From assembly GCA_041664165.1 (NCBI GenBank), contig JBAYLH010000003.1, forward strand, positions 3,247 through 67,246: 64,000 nt of DNA, given 5' to 3'. Origin of the DNA: Candidatus Buchananbacteria bacterium (GTDB lineage Bacteria > Patescibacteriota > Patescibacteriia > Buchananbacterales > UBA6539). Under the pieces are notes generated by a model, which saw only the letters and a program-made list of their open reading frames with translations, searched no databases and was not told the origin of the DNA. Position 1 is the first letter of the stretch, and every line of letters starts with the position of its first letter. A program made the translations under genes and the position numbers. Below are positions 22,739 to 50,498 of this stretch, piece by piece.

Positions 22739-22857
22739 AAATTTGAATTAATTTCAATTTTTTTTAATTATGTTTTTTCTTCCCTTTCGACCTAAAATTG
22801 GGAAAAATTATTTTACAAACTTGCTATTTTTCTTACTCTAATTTATATCGCCGATAT

Positions 22858-23100: not shown

Positions 23101-23238
23101 AAACCTGCCAAAGAGGCTAAAGGTACTCCCGTTGGCCTTGATACAGGTCTCGATTTATACCTGCCTCAAGTTTCTAAGGTTTTAATTTGCGCTTAGATAG
23201 GCTTGAATTATTGGTCCGAAATTCCCCCCAAACCAAAA

Positions 23239-24414: not shown

Positions 24415-24432
24415 AATTATTAGTTAAATTTA

Positions 24433-25032: not shown

Positions 25033-25264
25033 ATTATGTAGCCGCTAGATAATTTGAATTATTACAGCCTTGCTACAAGATGCGCAACCTGTTATGCTTA
25101 AAGACCAAGTATACTTATTACTGGAATGCCGGTGTAATATGGCAAAACCAAATCGACGTGACTATAAATGCCGGAAATATAGATATATCTCCATTATTAC
25201 ATGATTATCACCGTACCGCTGTAATAATTACGTAATATAACATTGCCACTTCCGGCTTAAATAT

Positions 25265-25786
25265 ATGGCTCCAAAACAAGAGACACAGCTACAAACAGAA
25301 CTAACCATAGCCCACCACCGCTACGAGAAAAGGCTTAATGCCTACGCATTTTTCAAGGTCAATAACCGTGTAATTGGCGAAGATTTAGTGCAGGACACCT
25401 TCATAAAAACCTGGACCTACCTGGTCAGACGGGGAAAAATTGACATAATGAAAGCTTTTCTCTATCACGTCCTTAATGACTTGATCGTGGATGAATATCG
25501 AAAACATAAAACAATCTCACTTGATGCCCTCCTGGAAAAAGGTTTTGAACCGAGCACTGACAATTCCGGGCGTCTTTTCAATTTCTTGGATGGCAAGACC
25601 GCACTTCTATTAATTTCGCGCCTCCCCGAAAAATATCAAAAAGTGATGCAGATGCGGTATGTGCGAAATCTATCGCTTAAAGAAATATCCCTTATCACTG
25701 GACAGTCAAAAAACACCGTTACCGTGCAAGCCTATCGGGGACTAGCCAAGCTTAAATTATTATACAATTCCCCGGGCGTAATATAG
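25265..25786 (+). CDS. ECF-type RNA polymerase sigma factor (sigma-70 regions 2 and 4)
   Basis: 173 aa. Region-2-like VQDTFIKTW and a region-4 HTH (LSLKEISLITGQSKNTVTVQAYRGLAKLK). Confidence 0.8.
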   Translation: MAPKQETQLQTELTIAHHRYEKRLNAYAFFKVNNRVIGEDLVQDTFIKTWTYLVRRGKIDIMKAFLYHVLNDLIVDEYRKHKTISLDALLEKGFEPSTDNSGRLFNFLDGKTALLLISRLPEKYQKVMQMRYVRNLSLKEISLITGQSKNTVTVQAYRGLAKLKLLYNSPGVI

Positions 25787-25910
25787 AAACTAATCCTGTT
25801 TGTACATATATAACCATAAAAATCTGCCCATCAAATTAAAATCGCAACTCCAATAAAATACCTCGCTTTCGGGCGAGGTATTTTATTATCACTTCTTCTT
25901 GCATAATTCA

Positions 25911-27239
25911 CTATATAGATGATAATCCTGAGAGAACAACGATAGTGTCTGCCGCAATTGTTTTCTCATTATTATTTGCAGTTCCGCGAATTCGTACCGT
26001 ACTACCAATGGCGATGTTACTCCAGCTCCCAAGTTTTCCATCCACATATATAGTGGTCGAGTCATTAGTGCTAATCGTCCAGGTCTTGTCAGTATTATCT
26101 GTCTTAAAAAGCACAACTGTTAAGGTCTTCGCCGTACTGTCAATTGCCATGACTGAACCCAAGCGATGCGCCACGCCGAGCCGTTGAATCGAATCATCTT
26201 TGATTACTCGCGCCACAAGATGACCAGTGACCTCATCGCGCCGACCAATAATACGAATGGAGTCGCCCTCGCTCAATTCGTTTAAGAGCGCTTTCCCGTA
26301 GTATCTTCGCACCAGCATCGTATCACTTGTGATGTCAATCATAATCTTGGTTCCTGGAGCGCCGATCAGGTTATTGACATCGTTTTTTTGATAAAATTTT
26401 GAATCAGCAACTGTTGCCTCAATAGTAATTGGCACTGCTAGGTCTTGCGGGATCATGGTTATAGTTGCGGGTACCACCCATCGTGTCACGCGCATAAAAA
26501 GATCATTACCGCGACGCAGGACAACTAAGATACTGGCATTCCAGGTCAACCGATTACCGTCGTTATTATCAGTAACTCGTGCACGAATACGATCACCCAC
26601 CTGTAAATCAGTGATACTGGCTGGATTCTTAGTACCAGCGACCATATTTGCATTAGTTAAATTCAACGTGAGGGTATCAGTGCCCCATAAAACGTCGACT
26701 TTATTCGTATCTGTGTGGATTGCCGTAATCCAGCCATTAATTCCCTTATGCCCGGGTTTAAAAGCATTATTGCCGAGCCGAATTGCAACCAGCTCATCAC
26801 TATTTATAAAGTGCCGCGCCGTAAAAGTGATAGGATCTCCGGCGATCCAATCGCTGAGGCTCGCTTGGGCGCCGCCATTAGTAGTAATTCTGGTACTACT
26901 ATCAATTTCAAAGGTGTTGTCTTTAGTAACCCCATCAGAATTGGTTGTACGAATAATAATCGTCGTATTCTGGGCTGTCGTGTTGCCGATTTCAATCAAA
27001 GTGCCGGTACCAGACACTACTTCAATTGCTTCAGAGGTCGCTTCATTAATAGTACTTTCTTTTGCCCCGATCATCTCCGCTTTTACGTCAATATTTACAT
27101 CGGTGCTCACATGTTCGCCAATCCTTAAATTTTCATAGAGATTCAGGCCTAATGCACTAGCCGGTATTGGCGGACAGACTGCTATCATAAGTAGCCCAAG
27201 AACCAAAAATATTGTTTTCATTTTTCTCATATACTTCAT
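25911..27239 (-). CDS. secreted repeat protein (DUF5666-like beta repeats), hypothetical
   Basis: 442 aa with a signal peptide. Recurrent units of the type D.I.V.G....DE..G.L.A..I. Confidence 0.4.
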   Translation of the reverse strand: MKYMRKMKTIFLVLGLLMIAVCPPIPASALGLNLYENLRIGEHVSTDVNIDVKAEMIGAKESTINEATSEAIEVVSGTGTLIEIGNTTAQNTTIIIRTTNSDGVTKDNTFEIDSSTRITTNGGAQASLSDWIAGDPITFTARHFINSDELVAIRLGNNAFKPGHKGINGWITAIHTDTNKVDVLWGTDTLTLNLTNANMVAGTKNPASITDLQVGDRIRARVTDNNDGNRLTWNASILVVLRRGNDLFMRVTRWVVPATITMIPQDLAVPITIEATVADSKFYQKNDVNNLIGAPGTKIMIDITSDTMLVRRYYGKALLNELSEGDSIRIIGRRDEVTGHLVARVIKDDSIQRLGVAHRLGSVMAIDSTAKTLTVVLFKTDNTDKTWTISTNDSTTIYVDGKLGSWSNIAIGSTVRIRGTANNNEKTIAADTIVVLSGLSSI

Positions 27240-37888: not shown

Positions 37889-39928
37889 ATGAATAAAGTC
37901 ATTAACTTTTTAAAACAAAAAAAACTGGCCTCAATCCTAATAATTTTGGTTTCGGCCGTTTTGGCTTACTCTAATATTTTTGGCAATGATTTTGTCTGGG
38001 ACGACCCGGATTTTTACCAAAACTGGCCGGCCCTTTACAGTTTTGATAATGCCGGGCAGCTTTTAGCGGGCGAAACGCCGCTGCAGCACCAAGGAGTCTT
38101 TCGGCCGCTGCGCAGCATTATCCAACTAGTCTTATTTCAGCTATTCGGGCCGAATAGCACCTGGCCTTATCACCTGATTTCTCTTTTAATCCATCTTGCC
38201 GGTATTATTGCCGTTTACTTGATTATTGAAATCATCACTAAAAAACGCACCATCGCCTTTCTGACGGCCTGGTTTTTTGCCCTTCATCCCCTGCACACCG
38301 AAGCGATCAGCTATATCACCACCAGTATTGACGTCGCCGGCGCGGCTATGATGCTTTGGTCGCTTTATTTCTATTTAGCTTTCCGTTTTTTGGCCCGACC
38401 TAAAATTTATTTTTTCAGTTCAATAATTCTGGCTTGGCTTTCTTTTTTCACTTACGAAATAACTTTGATTTTGCCGCTATTGATTTTACTGATTGAGTGG
38501 TATAAAGCCGGCTTTAATTACCAGATAATTTTTACCAAAATCAAAACCCTTTGGCTTTTTTGGCTGGGCATTTTAGCTTACATTTTTACCCGCTTGTCTT
38601 TGCATATCGGCGGGCGGCTTTTAGCTTCGGATCCAACCCAAAATTCTTTACCCGTCAGGCTGTTAACGATGGGTAAAGCGATTGTCAAATACATTTATCT
38701 GCTGATAATCCCCTGGCCGCTGAATGTTTACCATAAAATTGACGCCAGTTTTTCCTTGGCCGAACCAAAAGTCTTACTAGCCTGGCTGCTAATCTTGGCA
38801 ATAGCGGCCGTAACAATTTTAAACGCCAAAAAATTAAAACTGGCCTGTGTCGCCCTGCTTTGGTTTTTTGTTTGCCTACTGCCGGTATCCAATGTCTTTC
38901 CGACCGGAACTATAATGGCGGAAAAATATATCTATCTGGCTTCGGTCAGCATTTGCCTGCTATTGGCTTTACTGATTGATTATTTAATCAGTCGGCCGAA
39001 AGTTGTTTGGCAGGTCGTTGGCTTAATTACGGCATTAATTATTGCCGGGTTTTACGGCGCGGCGACTTACGCCAGAAATTTTGACTGGCGGGATAATATC
39101 ACGCTTTGGCAAAAAACTTTATTAGTCCGGCCGGACTATGGCCGGGTTTATAATAATTTAGGCTTCAGCTATTACTTAAAAAAAGATTACCAAAAGGCTT
39201 TGGCTAACTTTTTGCAGGCGGAAAAGCTCGAACCGAACCTGCCCTTAATCTACCATAATTTGGGTAATACCTATGACGAACTCGGCCAAAGCCAGGAAGC
39301 GATTGGCAGCTACCTTGAGGCGATTAAAATTGACAAGGAAAATACTTTTTATAACTACGCGGAAACTTACAATAACCTCGGAACGGTTTACCAAAAAATC
39401 GGCGAATACCAAAAAGCCGAAGAAAGCTATCAAAAGGCAATCACGGCCGACGAAAGCTATTTCCGCGCTGATTCCAACTTGGGTTTTATTTCTTTATTAG
39501 CTAAAGATTATAGCCAAGCCAAAGAATTTTTTGAAAAAGCCCTGGCGATTAATTCTAACTTTGCCCCCGCCTGGCACGGTTTGGCTGTTACCGATTTTAA
39601 TTTAGGCCAAACCCAAGAAGCCGTTGACAGCTACCTTAAATCAATCGAGCTCGGCCCGGACATAATCGATAATTATAGCCACTTGGCTTCAATTTATATG
39701 CAAAATGGCCAAACCCAAAAAGCCGTTGAAATCCTGGAAAAAGGCGCGGCCAATAATCCTCAAAACGCCGAAATCCAAACTAACTTGGCGATTATTTTAG
39801 CCAACAGCGGCCAGCTGGAAAAAGCCGTGGCGGGTTTAAAAAAAGCCTTAACCATTAACCCTAATTATTTACCGGCTCAAAAGACTCTGGCCGAGATTTT
39901 AAAAAAAATTAACGCCATAAAAAACTAA
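37889..39928 (+). CDS. polytopic membrane protein with C-terminal TPR repeats (TMTC/PMT-like glycosyltransferase family)
   Basis: 679 aa. The N-terminal ~400 aa has multiple TM helices and a VWDDPDFY motif. The C-terminal ~270 aa are 6-7 TPR units (..YNNLG..Y...G.Y..A...Y..A...). Confidence 0.55.
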   Translation: MNKVINFLKQKKLASILIILVSAVLAYSNIFGNDFVWDDPDFYQNWPALYSFDNAGQLLAGETPLQHQGVFRPLRSIIQLVLFQLFGPNSTWPYHLISLLIHLAGIIAVYLIIEIITKKRTIAFLTAWFFALHPLHTEAISYITTSIDVAGAAMMLWSLYFYLAFRFLARPKIYFFSSIILAWLSFFTYEITLILPLLILLIEWYKAGFNYQIIFTKIKTLWLFWLGILAYIFTRLSLHIGGRLLASDPTQNSLPVRLLTMGKAIVKYIYLLIIPWPLNVYHKIDASFSLAEPKVLLAWLLILAIAAVTILNAKKLKLACVALLWFFVCLLPVSNVFPTGTIMAEKYIYLASVSICLLLALLIDYLISRPKVVWQVVGLITALIIAGFYGAATYARNFDWRDNITLWQKTLLVRPDYGRVYNNLGFSYYLKKDYQKALANFLQAEKLEPNLPLIYHNLGNTYDELGQSQEAIGSYLEAIKIDKENTFYNYAETYNNLGTVYQKIGEYQKAEESYQKAITADESYFRADSNLGFISLLAKDYSQAKEFFEKALAINSNFAPAWHGLAVTDFNLGQTQEAVDSYLKSIELGPDIIDNYSHLASIYMQNGQTQKAVEILEKGAANNPQNAEIQTNLAIILANSGQLEKAVAGLKKALTINPNYLPAQKTLAEILKKINAIKN

Positions 39929-39966
39929 TTTTAATTTTGATAGCTTAAAAAATTACCTTTAAACTT

Positions 39967-40374
39967 ATGGCTGGCTTAGTCTATCTTTTCTCTCTAATTT
40001 ACACGGCGATTGCTAATACCGCCGGTTTAAGCCTCAATTCTGAAATCGACTTATTTTTAAACACCGCTTTGACTCTCAACCGATGGCTCTTTTTTATCGT
40101 TTTAGACTTGGCCGCGGCGATTTTTTTAGTCGGCATAATTATTACCGTTATCAGCATCGCCCGCGGCAACAAAAAATTCATCTGGGATAAATTCAGCTTC
40201 GGTTTTTCCTGCACGACCTGCCTGACTTTGCCTTTGCTTTTTTTACCCGTGGCTCAGGGTTTGGTTTATTGGGCTAATTTTTTGATGGCTAATTCTTTTT
40301 CAGCGGCAGGCATAATTGATCCGTTTAAATTTTGGTTTGGCCTGGTTTTGACGGTCTTGCTGATTTGGGGCTAG
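39967..40374 (+). CDS. hypothetical polytopic membrane protein
   Basis: 135 aa with four hydrophobic segments. Confidence 0.35.
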   Translation: MAGLVYLFSLIYTAIANTAGLSLNSEIDLFLNTALTLNRWLFFIVLDLAAAIFLVGIIITVISIARGNKKFIWDKFSFGFSCTTCLTLPLLFLPVAQGLVYWANFLMANSFSAAGIIDPFKFWFGLVLTVLLIWG

Positions 40375-40384: not shown

Positions 40385-40512
40385 CGGAGACCAACACTTG
40401 TGTTGGCGCTAAACTAATATTACAAAAACCAGTTTTACTCGCCGGGCTGCGTCGCGGAGACCAACACTTGTGTTGATGCTAAGTTAGTATTGCAAAACCA
40501 GTTTTACTCGCC
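40385..40512 (+). repeat. two tandem ~58-nt direct repeats, each containing the palindrome CCAACACTTGTGTTGG
   Basis: 40385-40443 and 40455-40512 are ~90% identical (cggagaccaacacttgtgttgg/a(c/t)gctaa..ttacaaaa(a)ccagttttactcgcc). They are followed by a bidirectional terminator. Confidence 0.8.
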
Positions 40513-40529
40513 ATGACAGGTGCGGGGTA

Positions 40530-40600
40530 AAGAAAAAGCGGACCAATCACCTTTCTAGCAATGCTTGCGCATAACTAGGGTGATCGGTCCGCTTGTATTT
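40530..40600. terminator. bidirectional rho-independent terminator
   Basis: A long stem AAGCGGACCAATCACC...GGGTGATCGGTCCGCTT with T-runs on both flanks. It sits between convergent genes. Confidence 0.6.
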
Positions 40601-40618
40601 TCGGCTCTTCCGCGCCGG

Positions 40619-41623
40619 TTAGGGTGCGGCAGGAGCACTGGTTGCCGGAGGGGCAACCGGGGGTTTAGGAGCAGGAGCTGGCGCAGGAGCCGGCTTGTTA
40701 ATCAACCCCTTTACCAGAGTCGGGTCGATTCCGGCGACACCCATATCCGCCGCTGAATTTTCCAGGCTCTTTTTGATTGCCTGGTATAACGGCGAGTCGG
40801 GGCCAGCCTGAATGGCATGAATTGCCATCCTATCCCAGGAAATATCCTTGGGAATACCAATGGCCGGTTGTCCCTTTGGGGTGCCGTTTACCACAACCGG
40901 AACCACGGTATCGGCTTGAGTGGTAGCGATTGCCGAACCACCTGTCGCCGGCGCAGGTGCCGAAGTGGCGGAACTGATCGGATTTTCCGATTCTTCCGCC
41001 AGCTTTCCCTTCGGAGACAGAATCTCCCATGCCCAGAATATCCCTAAAACAATAACCAGGGATACCAAGAGTACTACCGCGGCTCTTACCAAGCTACCCC
41101 GAATACGTTGTTCACGATTCGGCGTAGTAGGCGTAGTGGGCGCAGGAGTCGGTTCAGGCTGGACGTCGTCAAACCATAACGGCACACTGCCTCCATCACT
41201 AAACGGGTCGACCACTGGAGGTTCTGTTCCAGGGGTTGCGGCCGACGCACGCGCAGGAGTGGGAGCCGGTTCAAAAACCGGTTCCTCAAGAAGAGCAGAC
41301 AGATCCTGATCCTCATTTACTCCGCCACCGTCGCCGAAAGACTCAAGCGGCGGCAAACCATCAGGACCATCTACGGGTTTCGGGTTGGGCGAGAATTGAT
41401 TGATCAACTCGACCAGGGCGTTTCCATCGACTTGAATGGATCCGCTTTGCAGCTGCGCCAAGGCAAGATCAAAAAACTCTTTCCGAGGTAAAACATCTTC
41501 GTACCGCAGCCACGAAAGGCCAAGGTTGCGAAGATTTTCTTCGAGATTGGCGTCATTTAGGACGCCAATTAGGCCGGCGGCATCTAAAACAGCAGTCGCC
41601 TGTCTGATTTCCTGAAGAGTCAT
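40619..41623 (-). CDS. Pro/Ala-rich single-pass membrane protein, hypothetical (GC-rich operon, gene 3)
   Basis: 334 aa. The N-terminal cytoplasmic region is Pro-rich with acidic patches. A TM helix at ~175-195 is followed by a C-terminal (PA)n tract. The gene overlaps the upstream gene by 4 nt (ATGA). Confidence 0.45.
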   Translation of the reverse strand: MTLQEIRQATAVLDAAGLIGVLNDANLEENLRNLGLSWLRYEDVLPRKEFFDLALAQLQSGSIQVDGNALVELINQFSPNPKPVDGPDGLPPLESFGDGGGVNEDQDLSALLEEPVFEPAPTPARASAATPGTEPPVVDPFSDGGSVPLWFDDVQPEPTPAPTTPTTPNREQRIRGSLVRAAVVLLVSLVIVLGIFWAWEILSPKGKLAEESENPISSATSAPAPATGGSAIATTQADTVVPVVVNGTPKGQPAIGIPKDISWDRMAIHAIQAGPDSPLYQAIKKSLENSAADMGVAGIDPTLVKGLINKPAPAPAPAPKPPVAPPATSAPAAP

Positions 41624-42612
41624 GACTCTCCTCCTTCTCTAATCCGTCGGATTTTGACTTCCAGCGGACTACCGGTTAACAACTTGAACCGCAGTACTTC
41701 TCCCAGCAGGCTACCGGTAGAAAAATGCACCCGGGCACACCACTGGTTATCGGCTAATTGAACCGGGTTGAGTGGCCCAAATAATCCGTCACCCGATCTC
41801 ACCCGCAGCCGCTTCACGTCGTTTTCCGAATTCAATGGTCCGAATTCGAAAATTTCGTCTTTACAAACGACGACGTTGGTCGGCGTCCACCCTTGGGGGT
41901 CAGATCCAGCCATTGTGGCTAAAACCATCCCTTCTTTGGGTCGCGCCGCCTTGGATAGCGACAACAACGGTTTAACTGCGACAGCCAATTCCACTTTTAC
42001 TTCCTTTTGACTAGGAATTGGGCCAAGACAGCCATGCCAGACGTAGCCCAAAATCCAGCTGGCGCCGTCTGTCTTCAATTGCTGAACCGGCACCAGAGAC
42101 TCGGCCATACCGCCGGTTTTGAAGGCCAAACGGTAACAGGCCTTGACCGGACGACTTTGGTCCAAGACCTGATCGTCCATCGGTGCCCAGCCGCCTTCTT
42201 TGACCTGCATTAGCGGCGCTGGTGAGCGGACGATTATCCGTTCAGTCCAGTCCGTAACGCTAGCAAAGCCTTCGGCTAGCCGGTTGCTTGCCGCTGCGAT
42301 TTGCTCAATATCAATGAGCTGCTTCGTCATCGCCGCGGCGTTAGGATTTATGTTGTTTGGTCCAGGCAACTGAACCTGGAAATCCTTGACATTGATTGAT
42401 GCAACTACCGGCTTTACTTTTACTCCCCAAAATATCTTGCCGGGGACAAAAGTATTGGCCAGCAGCACTGCCAGGGGTATTACTACCAGCAGCACCCACT
42501 TCCAACGAGATTGCCAGAAGAGAGCCACTGCCAAAACCGCGACAGCCACGCTTGCTATTGGATAAAACATCCAGCTAAGCGCCGCTAACACCACCACCAG
42601 AAAAATTCTCAT
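41620..42612 (-). CDS. hypothetical membrane-anchored protein (GC-rich operon, gene 2)
   Basis: 330 aa, two N-terminal TM helices, then a soluble domain. No recognisable motifs. Confidence 0.4.
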   Translation of the reverse strand: MRIFLVVVLAALSWMFYPIASVAVAVLAVALFWQSRWKWVLLVVIPLAVLLANTFVPGKIFWGVKVKPVVASINVKDFQVQLPGPNNINPNAAAMTKQLIDIEQIAAASNRLAEGFASVTDWTERIIVRSPAPLMQVKEGGWAPMDDQVLDQSRPVKACYRLAFKTGGMAESLVPVQQLKTDGASWILGYVWHGCLGPIPSQKEVKVELAVAVKPLLSLSKAARPKEGMVLATMAGSDPQGWTPTNVVVCKDEIFEFGPLNSENDVKRLRVRSGDGLFGPLNPVQLADNQWCARVHFSTGSLLGEVLRFKLLTGSPLEVKIRRIREGGES

Positions 42613-42623
42613 CTTCCATTCTC

Positions 42624-43673
42624 CTACTTGGAGGCCTTAGCGGGCCTCTCCGGTTTGCTTTCTTCGGCTTCAGGTTTTTCTTTGGCCGGCTTTTCACCCC
42701 CACCGGTGAACCCACCAAACTTCAATGTCATTTCGGGAAAAGCCAGTCCACTGTGACCACTGCCAATCACGCCTTCTAGTGCCTTCATTATCGGGAAGGC
42801 GATGTTTGCCCAATGTTTATCAGGTAATCCGGTTACAGCCCGAATTTCCTTGATTGCCCTGGCCTGATGGACAGCAGCACGAGCACCAAACTCAGCTGCC
42901 TTGACGCTGGCCATGGCCGCCAGAACTTCCTTGAGAGGATAGATATTTTCGATCCGCACTTCCACTTTAAGACCGAAGTCTTTAAAGAAGTGCGTGCCAT
43001 TTACTAAGTCGGTCGCGGCCCGAGCCATCGCTAGGAGCTTAGCCGTTGGTAAATCGACCAATTCAGTATCCTCAAATCCCGCCGTCATATAATTAAGTAA
43101 GGCGGACATGAACTGCTCAACAATCCCTCTTACATCCTCCTTAATCGTGATTGCTGCTACGACCGGATTTTCCGTTGGCCAAACCGTTACCTGGCTATCA
43201 ACGACAACCGGGTTACTTCGGGTGTTAACCTGCCTTTGCAGCAGGTTAATATTAATCGGCCGGCAATCAAACAGCTTGACCGTTTCGAACAATAACCGGG
43301 GAAACCAGATTATTCGCCAACCGGATCTTTTGGCATAAAAGCCGGTCAGCGACTTTTCGTCAGCACCCCTAGTTCTCCGAACCACCCACGCAAAATTGGG
43401 CGGTATGTCTCGAATTTCGCACAGCGCGAGGATGATAAACCTCAAATACTTCTGATCACCCTCGACTATTTCTGAGCGCTCCCACCAGGGAACCTTCAGA
43501 AACTTCTGACTTATCACCCACCAGCCCGCCATGGCTGCCGAAATAATCACCAAGGTGAAAATCAAGGCAAATAACGGCGTCAGTGAGGCAATAAAAATAA
43601 ACACCACCAAACTGAGCAGCACCATTGCTGCCACCAACAACCATTCCCATCTGTTAAAATCCATGTCGCGCAC
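42624..43673 (-). CDS. SPFH/band-7 (stomatin/prohibitin-like) domain protein (GC-rich operon, gene 1)
   Basis: 349 aa. An N-terminal TM hairpin is followed by VVRRTRG...GW.I.FP.L....K.D.R......L, which fits the SPFH core. The C-terminus is a Lys/Glu/Pro-rich tail. Confidence 0.55.
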   Translation of the reverse strand: MRDMDFNRWEWLLVAAMVLLSLVVFIFIASLTPLFALIFTLVIISAAMAGWWVISQKFLKVPWWERSEIVEGDQKYLRFIILALCEIRDIPPNFAWVVRRTRGADEKSLTGFYAKRSGWRIIWFPRLLFETVKLFDCRPININLLQRQVNTRSNPVVVDSQVTVWPTENPVVAAITIKEDVRGIVEQFMSALLNYMTAGFEDTELVDLPTAKLLAMARAATDLVNGTHFFKDFGLKVEVRIENIYPLKEVLAAMASVKAAEFGARAAVHQARAIKEIRAVTGLPDKHWANIAFPIMKALEGVIGSGHSGLAFPEMTLKFGGFTGGGEKPAKEKPEAEESKPERPAKASK

Positions 43674-43873
43674 CTCCCGTATTTATTGAGGGAAAATACC
43701 CTCTTTACTCTTTTACTCTAATTTTCAAGGCTCATATTACTAGACCAGGAGGGTCTAATAACAACTCTATATAATAGCACATTTTACATTTTTTGTCAAA
43801 ACTAAACAAAAAACCCCTTTTAGCAGGGGTAAAATTTTACCTAAATTTAAATAAAATCCTATTAAAACTTGAT

Positions 43874-44269
43874 TTACTGCGACGTTGCAGAACTCCCCGG
43901 TTGAGTGGTAGCGCCGCTCGTACTATCCCCGCCAGCCACCGCATTGATGACAAAAGTGACCAAAGCGTAAGAAGTGAAAATCACCGCTAGACCGAAAGAA
44001 GCCCAAATAATTATATCTTTGCCTTTTTTGATTTTTTCGTCGTTACCCGAAGAAATCACCCACATAAAACCGCCCAAAATAAACGCCCCCAAAGCCAGGG
44101 AGCCGACAATGCCCAAAGCCGCTTTAATCACCCGGCCGACAATCACTCGCGGATCGTCTGTGCCCAAAGGATTATCCAGCTTGGTTTGGGCTAAGACCAC
44201 GCCGACATCAGCCAAAAATAAAAATAATAGCGAGGCGATTAAAATAAATTTTTTGGTCTTTTTTGGCAT
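43874..44269 (-). CDS. small secreted two-helix membrane protein (TrbC/VirB2-pilin-like architecture), hypothetical
   Basis: 131 aa. A long signal peptide, two hydrophobic helices separated by a KIKKGKD loop, and a Ser/Thr/Gly tail. Confidence 0.3.
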   Translation of the reverse strand: MPKKTKKFILIASLLFLFLADVGVVLAQTKLDNPLGTDDPRVIVGRVIKAALGIVGSLALGAFILGGFMWVISSGNDEKIKKGKDIIIWASFGLAVIFTSYALVTFVINAVAGGDSTSGATTQPGSSATSQ

Positions 44270-44347
44270 ATCACTAGTTTAAGTATAAATCAGGCGGCTT
44301 GAGGTGTCAAACCAGCCGAGCTGGGAATTATGTTAGGGATTAGGAAT

Positions 44348-45364
44348 TTAGGTTTTAGGTTTTAGTCTATGGATAATTAAACTTAGGCTGACAATAATTA
44401 TTCCCAAACTGACTAAAACCGGCAGCCGGACGCCAAAAATTTCCGGCGTTTGGTCAATTCGTAGAAATTCCATCGCCAGCCTGATTAAAGAATAGTTAAT
44501 TAAATAAACTAAGCTAACCAGCCCGCCAGCTTGCTGCTTTTTATAAAGCCAAAAAAACAAAACCAACAAAATCAAAAAATTGACCAAATCCAGCCCGGAT
44601 TCATACAAAAACGTCGGTTGAAAATACTGATAATTCAAATACCCGGCCGGCCGGTTGGCTAATTCAATGGGAATACCCCAGGGCAAAGCTGTCGGCTTAC
44701 CAAAAATTTCCTGGTTAAAATAATTGCCCCAGCGGCCGATCGCCTGCCCCAGCGGCAACGCCACGGCTAATAAATCCGCCCAAAGCCAAAAGCTATTTTT
44801 TTGCCCGCCGCCTACTCTTAAGCTTCCCCTCTCCCCCTTGGGGGAGAGGGTTAGGGTGAGGGGGTGAGGGGTGTTTAGCTTCAGGCATCTGAGGGTGAGG
44901 GGGTGGGTAGTGAGGGGGTGAGTATAAATAAGTAAAGTAATAATCCCGGCAATAATCGCCCCGTGAATCGCCAGCCCGCCATGCCAAACCGCGGGAATTT
45001 CCCAGGGGTTGCTAAAGTAATAAGGCCAGTCCAAAAAAATCGCATAAATCCGCGCGCCCAAAAAACTGAAAATAATCAGATAGAAAGCCAGGTTATAAAC
45101 CCCCCCACTTTCAATTAAAGGTTCCTGCAAACTTAATAATTTTTTATGCTCATCATCTTTTGTTTGTTTGGCCTGCCTGTTTTGAAAAAAAGTGGGGGGG
45201 TAAACTTCGTCGTCTTTAATTTCCCAGTATTTCGCTAATTGCAAAACCACAGCTAAACCGGCAACCACGCCGAAAACAACAAAAAGTCCATACCAATGAA
45301 TTTGGACAAATCCCAGCTGAAACAAAATCGGCTGCGGCATAAAGTTGTGCAAAAAGTTGATCAT
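44348..45364 (-). CDS. lgt: prolipoprotein diacylglyceryl transferase carrying an in-frame ~45-aa insertion encoded by a G-rich palindromic repeat
   Basis: 338 aa. The Lgt signature GRWGNYFNQEIFGKPTALPWG is present. The extra segment THPLTTHPLTLRCLKLNTPHPLTLTLSPKGERGSLRVGGG maps exactly onto repeat copy A (44826-44921). Confidence 0.8.
   Translation of the reverse strand: MINFLHNFMPQPILFQLGFVQIHWYGLFVVFGVVAGLAVVLQLAKYWEIKDDEVYPPTFFQNRQAKQTKDDEHKKLLSLQEPLIESGGVYNLAFYLIIFSFLGARIYAIFLDWPYYFSNPWEIPAVWHGGLAIHGAIIAGIITLLIYTHPLTTHPLTLRCLKLNTPHPLTLTLSPKGERGSLRVGGGQKNSFWLWADLLAVALPLGQAIGRWGNYFNQEIFGKPTALPWGIPIELANRPAGYLNYQYFQPTFLYESGLDLVNFLILLVLFFWLYKKQQAGGLVSLVYLINYSLIRLAMEFLRIDQTPEIFGVRLPVLVSLGIIIVSLSLIIHRLKPKT
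44826..44921. repeat. G-rich palindromic repeat, copy A (inside lgt)
   Basis: The copy contains the hairpin CTCTCCCCC-TT-GGGGGAGAG followed by tandem GGTTAGGGTGAGGGGGTG-like units with G3-G5 runs. Confidence 0.8.
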
Positions 45365-46494: not shown

Positions 46495-48888
46495 TTATCT
46501 GCTCTTGAGCCGCTTTTCTTCGGCTAATATATCTAAAGTCGTTTTGATTACGGTATCGGGATTGAGCGAAATACTATCAATTCCCTGCTTGACCAAAAAC
46601 CGGGCAAAGTCGGGAAAATCCGACGGCGCCTGGCCGCAAATGCCGATTTTGCAATTTTTCTTTTTGGCAATTTTGATTACTTGGCTGATTAATTTTTTCA
46701 CCGCTTCGTTTCGTTCATTATAAACATGGGCGACCAAAGCCGAATCGCGGTCAACGCCCAAAGTTAACTGAGTCAAATCGTTAGAACCGATGGAAAACCC
46801 GTCAAAAATTTCGGCAAACTCTTCGGCTAAAATCACGTTGGACGGAATTTCACACATGACATAAATCTCGAGATTGTCTTTACCCTGCTTCAAACCGTTT
46901 TTAGCCATGATGGCAATCACCTTTTTGCCTTCTTCAGCTGTCCGGCAAAACGGCACCATGATTTTGATATTTTTAAAGCCCATGACTTCGCGGGCTTTTA
47001 GCATGGCCTGGCATTCCAAAACGAAAGCCTTTTGGTAATTTTCCGAATAATAGCGCGAAGCGCCCCGCCAGCCGATCATCGGATTTGATTCAACCGGTTC
47101 AAATTCCTTGCCGCCGATTAAATTGGCATATTCGTTTGATTTGAAATCCGACAGCCGGACAATGACATCTTTGGGATAAAACGCCGCGGCAATCTGAGCC
47201 ACGCCTTCGGCCAGCTTATCAATAAAATACCCCGACTTGTCGTGATAGCCAAAAGTAATTTCGGCAATTTGTTTTTTGGCCTTTTTATCTTTTAACTTTT
47301 GAAAATTAAGCAGCGCTAAGGGATGGATTTTGATGTGTTCGTTAATGATAAATTCTTCCCTTGCCAAGCCGCAGCCGTCGTTAGGAATAAATGACGAGGC
47401 GAAAGCGACATCCGGCGAACCGACATTCATCATAATTTTAGTCTTCGGCCGCTTGATGCTTTTTAAATTAGTCTTTTTAATTTTAAACGGTAAGCTGCCG
47501 TCATAAACAAACCCGGTTTCACCTTCGGCGCAAGAAATCGTTAAGTGCCTGCCGGTCTTAATTTGTTTGGTGGCCGTTTCCGTCCCGACCACGCAAGGAA
47601 TGCCCAGCTCGCGGGAAACAATGGCGGCGTGGCAAGTCCGGCCGCCTTTATTGGTTACGATGCCGGCGGCAATTTTCATAATCGGTTCCCAGTCGGGGTC
47701 AGTCATGTCGGTGACCAATATTTCACCCGCTTTGAATTTTTTAATTTCCGAGGCACCGGAAATCACGTTGGCAACGCCAGAGGCAATTTTAGTACCCACG
47801 GGCGAACCGGTCGCAATTACCTTACCCCTTTTAACCAGCTGGTATTCTTCTAAAACTTTGACTTCTTTGTTGCCAAAAACGGTTTCGGGTCGGGCCTGGA
47901 GGATAAAAAGTTTTTTCGTCCGGCCGTCTTTAGCCCATTCAATATCCATCGGTTTGCCGTAATGCTTTTCAATTAAAATCCCCCACGCCGCCAGTTTCAA
48001 AATTTCTTTATCAGTTAAAACATACTTTTGCTGAGCCGTTTTGGTGGTTTTAATATTTTTCGTGGTTTTGCCATTTTCAACGGTATAAATCATCTTAATT
48101 TTTTTGCTGCCTAATTTTTTGGCAATAATCGGTTTAAAACCGTCAGCCAAAGTATCTTTAAAAATATAAAATTCATCAGTGTTGACCGTACCCTGGACGA
48201 TATTTTCGCCCAAGCCCCAAGAGCCGGAAATTAAAATAGTTTTTTCAAAACCAGTCTCGGTGTCAATGGTAAACATCACGCCGGACGAAGCTAAATCGGA
48301 CCGAACCATTTTTTGAACGCCGATTGACAGGCCGACTTTAAAATGATCAAAGCCTTTGTCAACTCGGTAAGAAATCGCCCGATTGGTAAAAAGCGAGGCT
48401 AAGCAATGGCGGCAAGCGTTGATTAAATCCGCTTCGCCACGGATATTCAAAAAACTTTCCTGTTGCCCGGCAAAAGACGCATCGGGCAAATCTTCGGCCG
48501 TGGCGGAAGACCGAACCGCGACGTCAACGCGGCGGCCGTATTGATGTTCCAGCTTCCGATAAGCGGCAGTTATCTGATTGCTTAAATCTTTGGGCAATTC
48601 CGCGTTTAAAATCAGCTCCCGAATCTGCCGGCCGCGGCTTTCCAGATTAACCATGTCTTTAGTGTTTAAATCCTGCAGCGCTTTTCGGATTTGCTTCATC
48701 AAGCCGGACTTTTTCAATAAATAAAAATAGGCTTGCGCGGTTACGGCAAAGCCATTAGGAATACTGACTCCCTGCGGAGCCAGCTTTTGGTACATTTCTC
48801 CCAGCGACGCATTTTTTCCGCCGACTTTGGGAATGTCTTTGATGGTCAATTCCTTAAACCACAAGATGAACTTTTTTTTGAATGGCAT
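46495..48888 (-). CDS. ppsA: phosphoenolpyruvate synthase (pyruvate, water dikinase)
   Basis: 797 aa. The N-terminus ...IKDIPKVGGKNASLGEMYQKL..GVSIPNGFAVTAQAYFYLL is the PEP-utilising-enzyme nucleotide-binding signature. The central phospho-His domain (GGRTCHAAIVSRELGIPCVVG) and a C-terminal TIM-barrel domain follow. Confidence 0.85.
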   Translation of the reverse strand: MPFKKKFILWFKELTIKDIPKVGGKNASLGEMYQKLAPQGVSIPNGFAVTAQAYFYLLKKSGLMKQIRKALQDLNTKDMVNLESRGRQIRELILNAELPKDLSNQITAAYRKLEHQYGRRVDVAVRSSATAEDLPDASFAGQQESFLNIRGEADLINACRHCLASLFTNRAISYRVDKGFDHFKVGLSIGVQKMVRSDLASSGVMFTIDTETGFEKTILISGSWGLGENIVQGTVNTDEFYIFKDTLADGFKPIIAKKLGSKKIKMIYTVENGKTTKNIKTTKTAQQKYVLTDKEILKLAAWGILIEKHYGKPMDIEWAKDGRTKKLFILQARPETVFGNKEVKVLEEYQLVKRGKVIATGSPVGTKIASGVANVISGASEIKKFKAGEILVTDMTDPDWEPIMKIAAGIVTNKGGRTCHAAIVSRELGIPCVVGTETATKQIKTGRHLTISCAEGETGFVYDGSLPFKIKKTNLKSIKRPKTKIMMNVGSPDVAFASSFIPNDGCGLAREEFIINEHIKIHPLALLNFQKLKDKKAKKQIAEITFGYHDKSGYFIDKLAEGVAQIAAAFYPKDVIVRLSDFKSNEYANLIGGKEFEPVESNPMIGWRGASRYYSENYQKAFVLECQAMLKAREVMGFKNIKIMVPFCRTAEEGKKVIAIMAKNGLKQGKDNLEIYVMCEIPSNVILAEEFAEIFDGFSIGSNDLTQLTLGVDRDSALVAHVYNERNEAVKKLISQVIKIAKKKNCKIGICGQAPSDFPDFARFLVKQGIDSISLNPDTVIKTTLDILAEEKRLKSR

Positions 48889-49010: not shown

Positions 49011-50498
49011 CTAAATCGTTTCCACTTTAACCAAATTGGTCTGGCCCAAAAAGCCAAAAGGATGGCCCGCGGCGATAACCACAATATCGCCTTTGCTAAC
49101 CAGCCGCTTGCTGATTAACAAATTCTTAATTTTAGCCATTAAGTCATTAAACGAGGAAACAAAAGGCAGATAATAGGAATTGACGCCCCAGCTTAAGCAA
49201 AGCTGATTTTTGGTTTTTTCCGAAGCCGCCAGCGCGACTACGGTGATATTGGGTCGGTATTTGGCAATTGACCGGGCGGTGAAACCGGAAGTCGTGGCGC
49301 AGACAATCAATTTGGCGCCAGTCTCGGCGGCAATTTTTTCCACCGCAAAGCTGACCGTTTCGGTAATTCCGCCGATTTTTTTTAAGCTATTTTCAATTTG
49401 CTGATGCTCTTCAATTTCGGTTTTTTCCACTTCATTGGCGATCCGCGTCATCACTTGCACCGCCTTGAGCGGGTACTTGCCGGTGGCGGTTTCCCCTGAA
49501 AGCATGATCGCGTCCGTGCCGTCTAAAATCGCGTTAGCCACGTCGGAAACTTCCGCCCGGGTTGGCACCGGATAGCGGATCATTGAATCAAGCATTTGCG
49601 TCGCAACAATGACCGGTTTGGCTTCCTGAACGCAGCGCCGGACAATTTTTTTCTGAATTAATGGCAAATCCTCCAGCGGAATTTCCAAACCCAAATCGCC
49701 GCGCGCTACCATAATGCCGTCGGCCACTTTCAAAATTTCTTCAAAATGAGCCACCGCTTCCGCCCGCTCGATTTTGGCAATGACTTTGGTCTGAGTTATC
49801 GGCACGCTCCCGCCGCGGTTGGGCTTTTTGAAATCTTTGTCTTTGCGGCCGAGCCTTGATTCAAGCCGGTGAATATTTTTTTTCAATTCGATAATATCCG
49901 ATTCATCTTTGACAAAAGACAGGGCAATAAAATCAACTCCTTGTTTTAAGCCGAACCTCAAGTCTTCCATGTCTTTTTGAGTTACCGGTTTGGCTTTAAT
50001 TTCCGACTTCGGAAAATTCATTCCTTTGTGGGCATAAATAATATCGCCAATTTTAACTTTGCAGCGAATCGCTTTATTTTTTATCGCAACTACCTCCAAT
50101 TCAATTTTGGCATCATCAATTAAAACCGGATTGCCGGGTTTTAAATCACGGTACAAACCGGGGTATTGAATCGGAATGAAAGCTGAAACATCTTTGAGGG
50201 AAATCCGAAAATTTTCCGGCACCAAATAGATAAACTCGCCGGCTTCGACTTTAATGCCTTCGGCGGCAATGTTGCCGGTGCGAATCCGCGGCCCCTGCAA
50301 ATCCTGCAAAATAGCGACCGGCTGGCCGGTTTTAGCCGCTACCTTTCTGAGATTATTAATCAGCAAGGTATGGTGTTTGTAAGTGCCATGGGAAAAATTA
50401 AGCCGGGCAACATTAAGCCCGGATTTAACCATCAGTTCGATTTTACTTTTGGTCTCCGAGGCCGGACCGATCGTGCAGACGATTTTGGTTCTTTTCAT
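49011..50498 (-). CDS. pyk: pyruvate kinase
   Basis: 495 aa. MKRTKIVCTIGPAS...NVARLNFSHG...QDLQGPRIRTG is canonical. Confidence 0.9.
   Translation of the reverse strand: MKRTKIVCTIGPASETKSKIELMVKSGLNVARLNFSHGTYKHHTLLINNLRKVAAKTGQPVAILQDLQGPRIRTGNIAAEGIKVEAGEFIYLVPENFRISLKDVSAFIPIQYPGLYRDLKPGNPVLIDDAKIELEVVAIKNKAIRCKVKIGDIIYAHKGMNFPKSEIKAKPVTQKDMEDLRFGLKQGVDFIALSFVKDESDIIELKKNIHRLESRLGRKDKDFKKPNRGGSVPITQTKVIAKIERAEAVAHFEEILKVADGIMVARGDLGLEIPLEDLPLIQKKIVRRCVQEAKPVIVATQMLDSMIRYPVPTRAEVSDVANAILDGTDAIMLSGETATGKYPLKAVQVMTRIANEVEKTEIEEHQQIENSLKKIGGITETVSFAVEKIAAETGAKLIVCATTSGFTARSIAKYRPNITVVALAASEKTKNQLCLSWGVNSYYLPFVSSFNDLMAKIKNLLISKRLVSKGDIVVIAAGHPFGFLGQTNLVKVETI

Follow-up and report, generated by a model that had tools for sequence, protein, structure and literature searches.

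The three-gene operon on the minus strand between 40619 and 43664 is probably a membrane-scaffold operon that is specific to one Patescibacteria (CPR) lineage and has been passed on vertically within it. By analogy with better-known systems, its function would most likely be that of a stomatin-like oligomeric membrane scaffold with dedicated partners that are not NfeD proteins, possibly tied to the adjoining pilin and envelope genes. In what follows, the window denotes the whole 64-kb stretch of DNA that was analysed.

Anatomy and control of the operon

As described in a first-pass annotation of this DNA, the operon comprises three minus-strand genes, which encode an SPFH protein (g1), a 330-aa partner (g2) and a 334-aa Pro/Ala-rich bitopic protein (g3). 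In the list of open reading frames these occupy 42624-43673, 41620-42612 and 40619-41623, respectively. The first-pass annotation had read g1 from a GTG start, as a protein of 349 aa, but this GTG falls within the ribosome-binding site. Translation instead begins at the ATG at 43664, which follows by 8 nt a GGAGG read from the sequence; the protein therefore has 346 aa, in agreement with the public annotation. The 4-nt overlaps proposed for the two junctions were found between g2 and g3 (ATGA) but not between g1 and g2, which are spaced by 11 nt; within this junction, an AGGAG spans the g1 stop codon. Across all loci, the spacing of the SPFH gene and g2 lies between an overlap of 4 nt and a gap of 36 nt. 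The features of the region are as follows.

44348..45364, minus strand: Lgt, prolipoprotein diacylglyceryl transferase (Pfam LGT, E=1.3e-58); synteny anchor
43874..44269, minus strand: VirB2-like T4SS_pilin, 131 aa (Pfam PF18895, E=1.6e-9)
43813..43830, minus strand: terminator-like hairpin and T-run; closes the upstream pilin gene and sets it apart from the SPFH operon
43771..43799, minus strand: sigma-70-type promoter of the operon (TTGACA, 17-nt spacer, TATTAT, extended -10 TG)
43665..43770, minus strand: 5' leader of about 100 nt, with a 5'-proximal hairpin, a conserved box and the GGAGG ribosome-binding site (43673-43677)
42624..43664, minus strand: g1, divergent stomatin-like SPFH/Band 7 protein, 346 aa (Pfam Band_7, E=4.6e-8)
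41620..42612, minus strand: g2, 330-aa partner, with homologues directly 3' of the SPFH gene in relatives
40619..41623, minus strand: g3, 334-aa bitopic protein, whose start overlaps the g2 stop (ATGA)
40529..40601, no strand assigned: bidirectional terminator, common to the operon and the convergent 135-aa gene

These signals predict three tightly coupled genes driven by one conserved promoter. The promoter agrees with the consensus at 11 of 12 positions; its TTGACA box is invariant across eight aligned orthologous intergenic regions, and its -10 region is mostly so, with 9 of 11 aligned positions of TGCTATTATA identical. Two elements of the leader recur in the aligned relatives: a box, CYTTGA(C/A)AAYT, and a hairpin, which is found at the same position with a different sequence. 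In the window, this hairpin (UUAUUAGACC...GGUCUAGUAA) has a folding energy of -13.3 kcal/mol (z=-2.7). The hairpin and T-run at the end of the pilin gene are likewise present at the equivalent place in the aligned relatives, and the pilin gene, though always adjacent to the module, is a separate transcription unit with its own promoter at 44282-44310.

At the other end, the strong bidirectional terminator and the tandem 58-nt repeats noted in the first pass are both present. The arms of the terminator (40529-40551 and 40579-40601) are 23 nt long and 83% complementary, with an A-run on one side and a T-run on the other. The two direct repeats, of 58 and 57 nt (40385-40443 and 40455-40512, period 70), lie in the 3' UTR of the convergent gene. 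There are just these two copies in the window, where the chance expectation is zero.

Base composition, synteny and origin

The operon had been singled out as GC-rich, compositionally foreign and horizontally acquired. It is indeed GC-rich, at 0.50-0.55 against 0.42 for the window, but it is not the only such stretch, since 7-9 kb reaches 0.52-0.55. Between 40500 and about 43500, 200-nt windows have a GC of 0.50-0.61; the 3' flank (39000-40300) is at about 0.42, with a dip to 0.33-0.35 in two windows at the 39.9-kb intergenic gap, and the 5' flank (43600-44300) is at 0.32-0.48. The values for g1, g2 and g3 are 0.552, 0.526 and 0.498, versus a mean of 0.417 (sd 0.048) for 50 other ORFs. Synonymous codon choice in the operon genes is deviant (z=-4.7 to -6.3), while that of the immediate neighbours is near 0. 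Lysine codons shift from AAA to AAG (0.63 versus 0.22), and the operon also stands moderately apart in its tetranucleotide signature. The background for these comparisons is the 64 kb of genome in the window.

Together with the sharp compositional borders, one at the terminator and one where g1 starts, such deviations are consistent with recent acquisition of the three genes as a foreign island, which would have entered between the pilin gene and the convergent gene for the 135-aa protein. The excess in GC, however, is largely a matter of protein sequence: the module has a GC content of 0.526, of which 0.503 is expected from amino-acid composition, over a background of 0.423. That is, about 78% of the excess is explained by amino-acid composition. 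The GC3 of the operon (0.50-0.565) also overlaps that of its neighbours (0.48-0.53). Furthermore, the module as a whole is GC-poorer than its flanks in none of the seven relatives compared, so the GC offset belongs to the module itself; in the L009 and L010 modules, some individual genes are not above every flanking gene. GC-richness is thus mostly a product of amino-acid composition and is common to the orthologous modules. A residue of atypical codon usage and tetranucleotides remains, but on balance the composition of the operon does not seem to mark it as foreign.

A search for the gene neighbourhood of the SPFH protein and its partners in other taxa recovered the same arrangement at eight independent loci of related Patescibacteria. 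The order is (PEP synthase)-Lgt-VirB2-like pilin-SPFH-g2-like-low-complexity bitopic gene(s), and the SPFH proteins of these relatives are only 27-41% identical. In the window, the genes flanking the operon region encode Lgt, the pilin, a TPR membrane protein and the 135-aa membrane protein. Lgt is found at the equivalent position in seven relatives. Whether PPS, Lgt, pilin or SPFH is compared, the nearest relative is in each case that of the L006 locus, and the distances of Lgt and SPFH co-vary (Mantel r=0.55, p=0.0135). Because the module occupies the same chromosomal position in related ultra-small Patescibacteria, it reads as an inherited, lineage-specific envelope module and not as a recent import.

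The surroundings of the operon also speak against an island. No integrase, transposase or tRNA lies at its borders, and nothing brackets it on both sides; the sole repeats (40385-40512) are one-sided, and the only tRNA in the window is at 15.4 kb. Searches of phages and plasmids with the module proteins by tblastn gave no matches, all 41 motif matches in IMG/VR are attributable to chance, and PHROGs contained no match for the module proteins. In PADLOC-DB, at E<=0.1, no defence family was found for g1, g2, g3, the pilin or the 135-aa protein. A type III R-M system at 15.9-20.5 kb is a far better island candidate in this window. Judged from the syntenic loci, the near-invariant promoter and the congruent divergence of Lgt and SPFH, recent acquisition appears largely refuted, and we regard it as very unlikely.

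Plain vertical inheritance does not, however, explain the deviant codon usage and the raised GC3 found in four or five orthologous modules. The GC3 of the module exceeds that of its flanks in L018 (0.44-0.45 versus 0.24-0.30), in L020 (0.66 versus 0.40-0.47), in L009 and L017, and slightly in the window. A module native to the clade but repeatedly exchanged or converted among relatives, through in-situ replacement from GC-richer lineages or GC-biased gene conversion, would account for both features. The switch in lysine codons fits this explanation, and the conserved flanks and promoter would permit homologous recombination. Against it, the distance matrices of Lgt and SPFH are positively correlated, albeit for few sampled taxa, and no recent donor is visible, since the nearest SPFH relative is only 40% identical. 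We consider such exchange rather doubtful, and retain vertical inheritance within the clade as the preferred explanation.

The three proteins and their proposed roles

The assignment of g1 to the SPFH/band-7 proteins is borne out by Pfam: Band_7 scores 33.8 bits, relative to a gathering score of 23.6, and the match to PF01145 spans profile positions 3-175 of 176 (E=4.6e-8). It is the sole domain detected, with no match to flotillin, YqiK or another SPFH subfamily in Pfam or NCBIfam. The best solved match of the g1 family profile is the PH stomatin 3bk6 (E=1.1e-6), followed by the SPFH and coiled-coil region of HflC (E=1e-5). The protein consists of two hydrophobic helices (about 8-28 and 31-52), the SPFH domain (90-274), a helical region and the Lys/Glu/Pro tail seen in the first pass; an Ala-rich helical segment aligns with the coiled-coil region of stomatin. 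Most members of the family have two TM helices, and P0008/L012 has one. The SPFH sequence is so divergent that just 26 clusters, among 1.84 billion cluster representatives, were found at E<=1e-3, and a search of 5.8 billion proteins returned nothing beyond the query itself. By these searches, the SPFH clade of g1 appears to be rare, small and divergent.

For g2, the first-pass description of a 330-aa protein with no known domain stands, as no family was found in Pfam, NCBIfam, PADLOC or PHROG, and no match in the PDB. Its two TM helices are not clear, however; the AlphaFold2 model shows three hydrophobic N-terminal helices, at residues 2-15, 17-32 and 38-55. These are followed by a poorly predicted middle region of about 170 aa and by a beta-rich C-terminal domain (approximately residues 230-325), modelled with about nine strands. 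This domain is the only confident part (pLDDT 71-89 per 10-residue block) of a model that is mostly of low confidence (mean pLDDT 54; 38 for a single-sequence prediction). Homologues of g2 lie directly 3' of the SPFH gene in L004, L005, L006, L009, L010 and L013. The g2 HMM also finds ORFs in L020 (1e-20), L018 (4e-12) and L012 (7e-7), three loci absent from the set used to build it, and the family is seen in ten loci in all. Thus far, g2 appears to found a small family of its own, whose members are always encoded directly 3' of an SPFH gene of this clade. Relatives of g2 carry 1 to 4 TM helices. Because the family has either 1 or 3 TM helices, the C-terminal domain is probably on the outside, and could thereby be across the membrane from the SPFH domain.

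It is conceivable, albeit improbable, that g2 is an NfeD homologue diverged beyond recognition, with a 170-aa insertion, and that the operon contains an ordinary stomatin-NfeD pair. NfeD partners consist of about three hydrophobic stretches and an all-beta domain, 140-150 aa in total (PMC2636767), and the three N-terminal helices and C-terminal all-beta domain modelled for g2 resemble this generic layout. The PH stomatin, the closest solved relative of g1, has an NfeD partner, and YuaF was recognised as an NfeD protein only once its structure was solved (PMC2636767). Nevertheless, none of seven members of the g2 family matches Pfam NfeD, PF01957, even at E<=10. Nor does the family profile match any NfeD structure at E<=10 in the copy of the PDB searched, which may not include, for example, 2EXD/PH0471, one of the solved NfeD structures (PMC2636767). 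The modelled domain has about nine strands, versus five in NfeD; Foldseek detects no significant structural neighbour and no NfeD, the top matches being CBM, jelly-roll or Ig-like folds. In addition, g2 is twice the size of NfeD and lies downstream of the SPFH gene. Lastly, the single-TM members of the family imply an extracytoplasmic domain, unlike that of YuaF, whose soluble domain is cytoplasmic. As g2 and g3 also lack a Band_7 domain in Pfam, the earlier view that these partners are neither NfeD/YqiJ-type proteins nor an HflK/HflC pair is upheld.

The Pro-rich region, single TM helix and (PA)n tract ascribed to g3 were all found. Its Pro-rich N-terminal half begins with a helical region of about 80 aa, followed by a Pro-rich linker; the TM helix is at 178-196, and the outside region is Pro/Ala-rich, bears an 'I.PKdISw...GPDSP' motif and ends in the (PA)n tail. 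No family in Pfam or NCBIfam matches g3, and a homologue could be detected in L004 alone, as the third gene there (E=2-3e-6). The third position in other loci is nonetheless occupied by genes with g3-like architecture. This slot thus seems always to be taken by single-pass membrane proteins that evolve fast and are rich in Pro, Ala and acidic residues; there are one to three of them per locus, and in the window only g3. In g3, the architecture appears to be kept while the sequence evolves very fast.

In the scaffold mechanism that we propose, g1 would oligomerise into a ring or cage at the cytoplasmic membrane, as do other SPFH proteins (stomatin, flotillin, HflK/C). Because of the tight translational coupling, g2 would be a stoichiometric client or adaptor of g1, functionally analogous to NfeD in stomatin and flotillin operons, or to YdjG/YdjH for YdjI. 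With its cytoplasmic N-terminal half and its Pro/Ala-rich outside half, g3 may be a transmembrane connection between the complex and the cell wall or surface. That Lgt and the VirB2-like pilin are constant neighbours suggests that the module might organise or quality-control envelope and surface proteins.

A more specific version of this scaffold explanation, compatible with it, is that the operon is an accessory module of a VirB2-like pilin or surface apparatus. The SPFH ring would be a platform for storing, sorting or assembling pilin, for episymbiotic contact, and would perhaps also serve Lgt-dependent lipoproteins. In the window, as in seven relatives (L006, L009, L010, L012, L017, L018 and L020), the SPFH gene is directly preceded by a PF18895 gene, and three pilin copies flank the rearranged module of L005. 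VirB2-like pilins are widespread in Patescibacteria, often away from virB4 (PMC12102498), and T4SS components of Agrobacterium are reported to reside in SPFH-associated detergent-resistant membranes (PMC8656257). Nonetheless, the pilin gene carries a separate promoter and terminator, its distances do not co-vary with those of SPFH (Mantel r=0.08), and PF18895 genes are multicopy in CPR genomes. No VirB4, VirB6 or VirD4 was found in the window ORFs compared with Pfam, a set of about 30 out of some 53 that takes in every flanking gene at 32.9-61.2 kb except an ORF of about 600 aa at 52.5-53.1 kb. Because the cases of synteny share descent, the link to the pilin rests on one lineage and the rearranged L005, and genes that adjoin within a single clade may simply have inherited that order, with no functional link. 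We therefore view a pilin platform as a tentative possibility. Less probable still is an undescribed, Patescibacteria-specific trans-envelope complex, in which the SPFH ring, a novel-fold g2 and a hypervariable, wall-spanning g3 would form a platform for the VirB2-like pilin and a host-contact surface apparatus. If this were true, the locus would be one of host interaction, and diversifying selection or recombination there would be the source of both the hypervariable g3 and the persistently raised GC of the module.

Comparison with known SPFH systems

Flotillin operons (FloT/YuaG-YuaF and YqiK-YqiJ; SPFH2) resemble the present one in combining an SPFH scaffold and a small membrane partner. 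Their partner, however, is NfeD2, and flotillins are longer, with extended coiled-coil flotillin repeats; in Pfam and NCBIfam, g1 matches neither flotillin nor YqiK. HflK/HflC-FtsH is similar in that HflC is the second-best solved match of g1 and is part of an SPFH cage built around a client membrane protein. Here, by contrast, there is a single SPFH gene and no paralogous pair, and no ftsH was found in the Pfam-scanned ORFs. Also, the two N-terminal TM helices suggest that the SPFH domain of g1 is cytoplasmic rather than periplasmic.

Stomatin/NfeD operons (SPFH1; PH1510/PH1511 of P. horikoshii and E. coli QmcA(YbbK)-YbbJ) share with this operon an SPFH protein anchored in the membrane by its N-terminus, a tightly coupled membrane partner with N-terminal hydrophobic helices and a C-terminal all-beta domain, and, by analogy, the oligomeric scaffold function expected of g1. 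They differ in that g2 has no NfeD signature, ClpP-type protease domain or OB fold, is about 330 aa long instead of 140-150 aa and sits downstream of the SPFH gene; in that a third, low-complexity bitopic gene belongs to the unit here; and in the high divergence of the g1 SPFH domain. The absence of an NfeD neighbour has precedents, namely in SPFH subfamilies 6-12 (PMC2636767).

Such a precedent is also provided by pspA-ydjGHI (samGHI) of B. subtilis, where the SPFH protein YdjI has the membrane partners YdjG and YdjH (PMC8581546). YdjI is soluble and recruited by its partners (PMC8581546), whereas g1 has TM helices of its own; the gene order is reversed, and the operon described here has no PspA gene. 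Neither Pfam nor NCBIfam contains a family that matches g2 or g3, which sets them apart from YdjG and YdjH at the level of family searches. What the two systems have in common is an SPFH protein with two membrane partners that are not NfeD, and a theme of envelope stress or organisation (PMC8581546).

Operon structure, promoter and leader

The GC-rich stretch is filled by three minus-strand genes, as the first-pass annotation had described: g1, encoding an SPFH/Band 7 protein; g2, encoding its 330-aa membrane partner; and g3, encoding a 334-aa Pro/Ala-rich bitopic protein. The operon consists of one conserved promoter, a 5′ leader, these three coupled genes and a terminator.

42624-43664, minus strand: g1, ORF, SPFH protein, 346 aa
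41620-42612, minus strand: g2, ORF
40619-41623, minus strand: g3, ORF
40529-40551 and 40579-40601, both directions: arms of a bidirectional terminator, from the sequence
40385-40443 and 40455-40512, plus strand: two direct repeats of 58/57 nt, period 70

The start codon of g1 is the ATG at 43664, with GGAGG 8 nt before it; the resulting 346-aa protein is the same as in the public annotation. The GTG chosen earlier, which gave 349 aa, lies within the ribosome-binding site; the assignment to the SPFH/Band 7 proteins stands. Four-nucleotide overlaps had been proposed at both junctions, and one is present: g2 and g3 overlap by ATGA (4 nt), whereas a gap of 11 nt lies between g1 and g2, and an AGGAG spans the g1 stop codon. 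The terminator and the tandem repeats are real. The repeats, each of which contains the hairpin CCAACAC-TT-GTGTTGG, occur in two copies only in the window; they precede the shared terminator in the 3′ UTR of a convergent gene for a 135-aa membrane protein (39967-40374), outside the SPFH operon. Rfam gave no match in the repeat and terminator region. In NCBI the window proteins carry the locus tags WC768_00080 and WC768_00085 and are assigned to a Patescibacteria group MAG, and the same contig (257.6 kb) is found in ENA, JGI and Logan assemblies.

The intergenic region before the SPFH gene could be aligned in 8/8 loci (the window and relatives L006, L009, L010, L012, L017, L018 and L020). In these alignments the terminator hairpin and T-run of the upstream pilin gene are followed by the SPFH promoter, whose TTGACA box is invariant, whose 17-nt spacer ends in ...ATATGC, and whose extended -10 element (TGCTATTATA) is identical at 9/11 aligned positions. 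A TTGACA-N17-TATTAT promoter with extended -10 is almost invariant in eight genomes (promoter and leader together: 43665-43799, minus strand, in the window). A conserved CYTTGA(C/A)AAYT box follows the -10 element at a distance of about 45 nt, and each of the eight genomes has a 5′-proximal hairpin after the promoter, at the same position and of differing sequence (z=-1.2 to -3.6). RNAalifold found no consensus structure in the 5′ leaders, because these hairpins share no alignable sequence. The leader may be an mRNA-stabilising or regulatory element.

The SPFH protein and its partners

The Band_7/SPFH domain of g1 is recognized by Pfam above the gathering score (E=4.6e-8). An exhaustive phmmer search of 1.84 billion cluster representatives returned 26 proteins at E<=1e-3 and 21 at E<=1e-10, the closest being 40% identical. 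In a word-indexed search of 5.8 billion proteins, g1 and g2 each matched themselves alone, and a profile of the 21 SPFH sequences retrieved 3 proteins only, probably because the Lys/Glu tails saturated the index. A strict degenerate motif, D-x-R-x10-VNTxxNPVxxD, was found in 2/185,579 GTDB species genomes and in one metagenome contig (Hainich groundwater), all on contigs already known; a scan of the GTDB genomes with a single protein gave no matches, and the 41 matches of a loose motif in IMG/VR were all by chance. Two SPFH alignments contained no conserved stretch of 7-10 columns. Several clade members have no precomputed Band_7 match, and standard annotation often misses the clade. Against solved structures, the family profile is closest to the stomatin of P. 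horikoshii (3bk6, E=1e-6), followed by HflC (E=1e-5). Judged from these profiles, the g1 clade is a small, highly divergent, stomatin-like SPFH group. Its members share N-terminal hydrophobic helices, the SPFH domain, an Ala-rich helical region and a Lys/Glu-rich tail. A cytoplasmic SPFH domain is probable, since most of them show two transmembrane helices flanked on either side by Lys/Arg; one member has a single such helix.

Neither g2 nor g3 belongs to a family in Pfam, NCBIfam, PADLOC or PHROG. The homologues of g2 are the genes directly after the SPFH gene in other loci, and the SPFH-g2 junction is tight in all of them, from a 4-nt overlap to a 36-nt gap. The partner in L009 is 30% identical to g2 over 313 aa; those in L006, L004, L013 and L010 are linked to it by their C-terminal domains and by transitive matches, and a seven-member HMM detects ORFs outside its build in L020 (1e-20), L018 (4e-12) and L012 (7e-7). 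An AlphaFold2 model of g2 was computed from an 8-sequence alignment, the single-sequence model being poor (pLDDT 38). Three helices form the N-terminal part of the model; a middle of low confidence follows, and the C-terminal domain (about residues 230-325), of approximately nine strands, has pLDDT of 71-89 by 10-residue block. The first description gave g2 two transmembrane helices, against the three N-terminal ones of this model. The view that g2 has no known domain and does not look like an NfeD protein holds: members of its family gave no NfeD match in Pfam and matched no other family consistently; neither a solved NfeD domain nor any other PDB entry was matched by the family profile; and Foldseek found no significant PDB or viral neighbour for the C-terminal domain, its best, non-significant matches being to CBM, jelly-roll or Ig-like sandwiches rather than OB folds. 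In the relatives of g2 a Lys-rich N-terminus is followed by one or three transmembrane helices, which suggests that the predicted beta domain is extracytoplasmic.

In g3, an approximately 80-aa helical region is followed by a Pro-rich linker, a transmembrane helix (residues 178-196) and, on the outside, a region rich in Pro and Ala that closes with a (PA)n tract, in agreement with the first description. The protein is single-pass, probably with its N-terminus inside and its C-terminus outside. Its sole detectable homologue is encoded third in L004 and shares an 'I.PKdISw....GPDSP' motif with it (E about 2e-6); phmmer and iterated HMM searches revealed no others. In the other loci this position is occupied by one to three genes that share its architecture and composition (P 5-15%, A 3-15%, or acidic). 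Some are interrelated, for example the third downstream genes of L006 and L009 (E=3e-13). Thus g3 is conserved in position and architecture and hypervariable in sequence.

Base composition and inheritance

The first-pass annotation had regarded the operon as compositionally foreign and as a candidate horizontally acquired module. The GC step on which this view was based is confirmed: 200-nt windows between about 40,500 and 43,500 have a GC content of 0.48-0.61, compared with a window mean of 42.1%. The 3′ flank (39,000-40,300) is at about 0.42, except for two windows of 0.33-0.35 in the intergenic gap at 39.9 kb, and the 5′ flank (43,600-44,300) at 0.32-0.48.

Base composition of the operon genes, with comparison sets
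Total GC: g3 0.552; g2 0.526; g1 0.498; 50 other window ORFs 0.417 ± 0.048
GC1: g3 0.66; g2 0.59; g1 0.53; 50 other window ORFs 0.465
GC3: g3 0.50; g2 0.565; g1 0.553; genes at 36.9-50.5 kb 0.48-0.53

These values show that the first codon position holds most of the GC excess. When the operon's amino acids were re-encoded with the codon preferences of the window, the predicted GC was 0.503, compared with 0.526 observed and a background of 0.423; about 78% of the excess therefore reflects amino-acid composition, the proteins being enriched in Ala, Pro, Val, Arg and Trp and depleted in Lys, Ile, Asn and Tyr. A codon deviation remains (operon versus background: AAG 0.63 vs 0.22, CTG 0.31 vs 0.15, GGC 0.31 vs 0.52), and in a leave-one-out codon likelihood the operon scores z=-4.7 to -6.3, with its direct neighbours at about 0. 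By tetranucleotide signature the operon is a moderate outlier (z=-1.8 and +2.4); three other stretches of the window are atypical too, one of them more strongly. Total GC, codon choice and tetranucleotides thus depart from the 64-kb background; however, most of the GC excess is driven by amino acids, and the offset is common to orthologous modules, whose GC is at least equal to that of their own Lgt (prolipoprotein diacylglyceryl transferase), pilin and PEP synthase flanks. L010 shows a small offset, and some downstream genes of L009 match the module; the ranges overlap in both loci. Since the anomaly is inherited with the module, it is no trace of recent import.

The offset extends to third codon positions in four or five loci, the window among them, and is there not accounted for by amino-acid composition; within-clade exchange, GC-biased gene conversion or selection are possible causes.

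GC3 of module and flanks in relatives
L018: module 0.44-0.45; flanks 0.24-0.30
L020: module 0.66; flanks 0.40-0.47
L009: module 0.67-0.72; flanks 0.43-0.59
L017: module 0.44; flanks 0.34-0.36

The strongest tetranucleotide outlier in the window is a type III restriction-modification island (15892-20462, plus strand; GC 0.29-0.32, GC3 0.26), directly 3′ of tRNA-Asp (15414-15488) and tmRNA (13387-13839). It encodes Mod (PF01555 and PF12564), a Res-type helicase (PF04851) and a 556-aa ORF without Pfam match. As a product of horizontal acquisition, this island is far more plausible than the SPFH operon. Synonymous codons also deviate (z=-2.4 to -5.5) at 20678-27239, a block that contains unknown ORFs and the genes for a sortase carrying a PG-binding domain (20678-21565) and for an ice-binding-like surface protein (PF11999, 23239-24414). 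The 7-9 kb part of the ORF at 5549-9148 (minus strand), a 1199-aa surface protein with CarboxypepD_reg, SdrD_B, DUF4215 and bMG3-like domains, equals the SPFH operon in GC (0.52-0.55); high GC in this genome therefore tracks envelope proteins rich in Ala, Gly, Pro and Thr.

A gene-neighbourhood search for the SPFH gene and its partners, proposed along with the claim of acquisition, recovered the same order in relatives. Contigs encoding ten relatives were compared, and the order was tabulated for loci having upstream sequence.

Gene order around the SPFH gene (upstream genes; downstream products)
Window: PK (49011-50498), PEP synthase (46495-48888), FabA-like, Lgt, pilin, g1; g2, g3
L006/L007: PK, PEP synthase, Lgt, T4SS_pilin; 393, 268, 275 aa
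L009: Lgt, pilin; 338, 264, 183 aa
L010/L011: PEP synthase, Lgt, pilin; 293, 272, 281, 180 aa
L012: Lgt, pilin; partial ORF
L017: Lgt, pilin; partial ORF
L018/L019 (GCA_018818885.1, Patescibacteria): PEP synthase, Lgt, pilin; 305, 290 aa
L020: Lgt, pilin; partial ORF

Every locus with upstream sequence has the order of the window. The contigs of L004 and L013 start at the SPFH gene and match in their downstream pattern; the most distant locus, L005, keeps the SPFH gene and the partner, with three pilin genes on the opposite side. Identity to the window is 70-79% for PEP synthase, 41-50% for Lgt, 46-64% for the pilin and 27-41% for the SPFH protein, with L006 the closest in each case. Pairwise distance matrices of Lgt and SPFH from eight genomes are correlated (Mantel r=0.55, p=0.0135). 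From the shared synteny, this correlation and the conserved promoter, we conclude that the module is an old, vertically transmitted transcription unit of the clade. These same observations, with the inherited composition anomaly, speak against horizontal acquisition; that claim, the source of much of the initial interest, is unsupported, and a sharp GC step with deviant codons is insufficient to call horizontal transfer. The inheritance and anatomy proposed here for an SPFH scaffold-partner operon are likely to be correct.

Two of the compared contigs, CAZHUO010000008.1 (L006/L014) and CAYHQU010000010.1 (L010/L015; also AABZ06_09095), carry the public labels 'uncultured Gammaproteobacteria bacterium' or 'Bdellovibrionota bacterium'. 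Both have the CPR-type (Patescibacteria) synteny PEP synthase-Lgt-PF18895 pilin-SPFH, and are probably mis-binned or mislabelled Patescibacteria contigs. The lgt gene of the window (44348-45364) has a local GC-rich insert (44700-45000, 0.56-0.57) encoding a repetitive HPLT/PHPLTLTLSPKGERG segment, which makes this Lgt longer (338 aa) than those of relatives (265-283 aa).

Proposed role and comparison with known systems

SPFH proteins are universal membrane organisers. To our knowledge, few dedicated SPFH partners have been defined apart from NfeD, FtsH and the Ydj proteins, the clients of bacterial SPFH proteins are mostly unknown, and CPR envelope biology and host attachment are poorly understood. 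The present analysis defines a rare, divergent SPFH clade with an obligatory, co-inherited partner that has no significant structural neighbour, at a fixed site in a constant neighbourhood of envelope genes, beside Lgt and a VirB2-like pilin. The three genes are a concrete target for structure prediction, and for genetics in cultivable CPR relatives.

By analogy with other SPFH proteins, g1 would probably form an oligomeric ring or cage at the membrane; g2 could be its dedicated client or adaptor, and g3 a flexible connector that crosses the membrane towards the wall or surface. This mechanism is tentative; taken together with inheritance and anatomy, the reading as a whole is somewhat favoured. 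Other identities were rejected: a defence system (no PADLOC match) and a prophage or plasmid remnant (no match in PHROGs or by tblastn). In a full-text literature search, three papers named both SPFH and Patescibacteria, one of them a cyanobacterial thylakoid study that is not on the SPFH-g2-g3 module.

A functional tie to the adjacent pilin is possible. VirB2-like pilins are widespread in Patescibacteria, often away from virB4, and the survey of type IV secretion systems in this group does not mention SPFH (PMC12102498). However, the pilin gene is a separate transcription unit, pilin divergence does not track SPFH divergence, and no further T4SS gene was seen among the Pfam-scanned ORFs of the window; since these lack VirB4, VirB6 and VirD4, the reading as a T4SS gene cluster was rejected.

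Stomatin, flotillin and HflK/C form ring or cage oligomers, and operon-encoded membrane partners such as NfeD and YdjG/YdjH are known (PMC2636767; PMC8581546). As an SPFH-partner unit, the module resembles both stomatin/NfeD and YdjGHI. It does not belong to the NfeD-containing operons or to HflK/C: the early impression that its partners are not the usual ones holds, given the NfeD null results and the single SPFH gene, which also led us to reject an HflKC pair. Hinderhofer et al. described small SPFH subfamilies, 6-12, without an NfeD neighbour or a characterised member (PMC2636767). The g1 clade is of this kind, and what is new is its defined partner family and its fixed CPR context.
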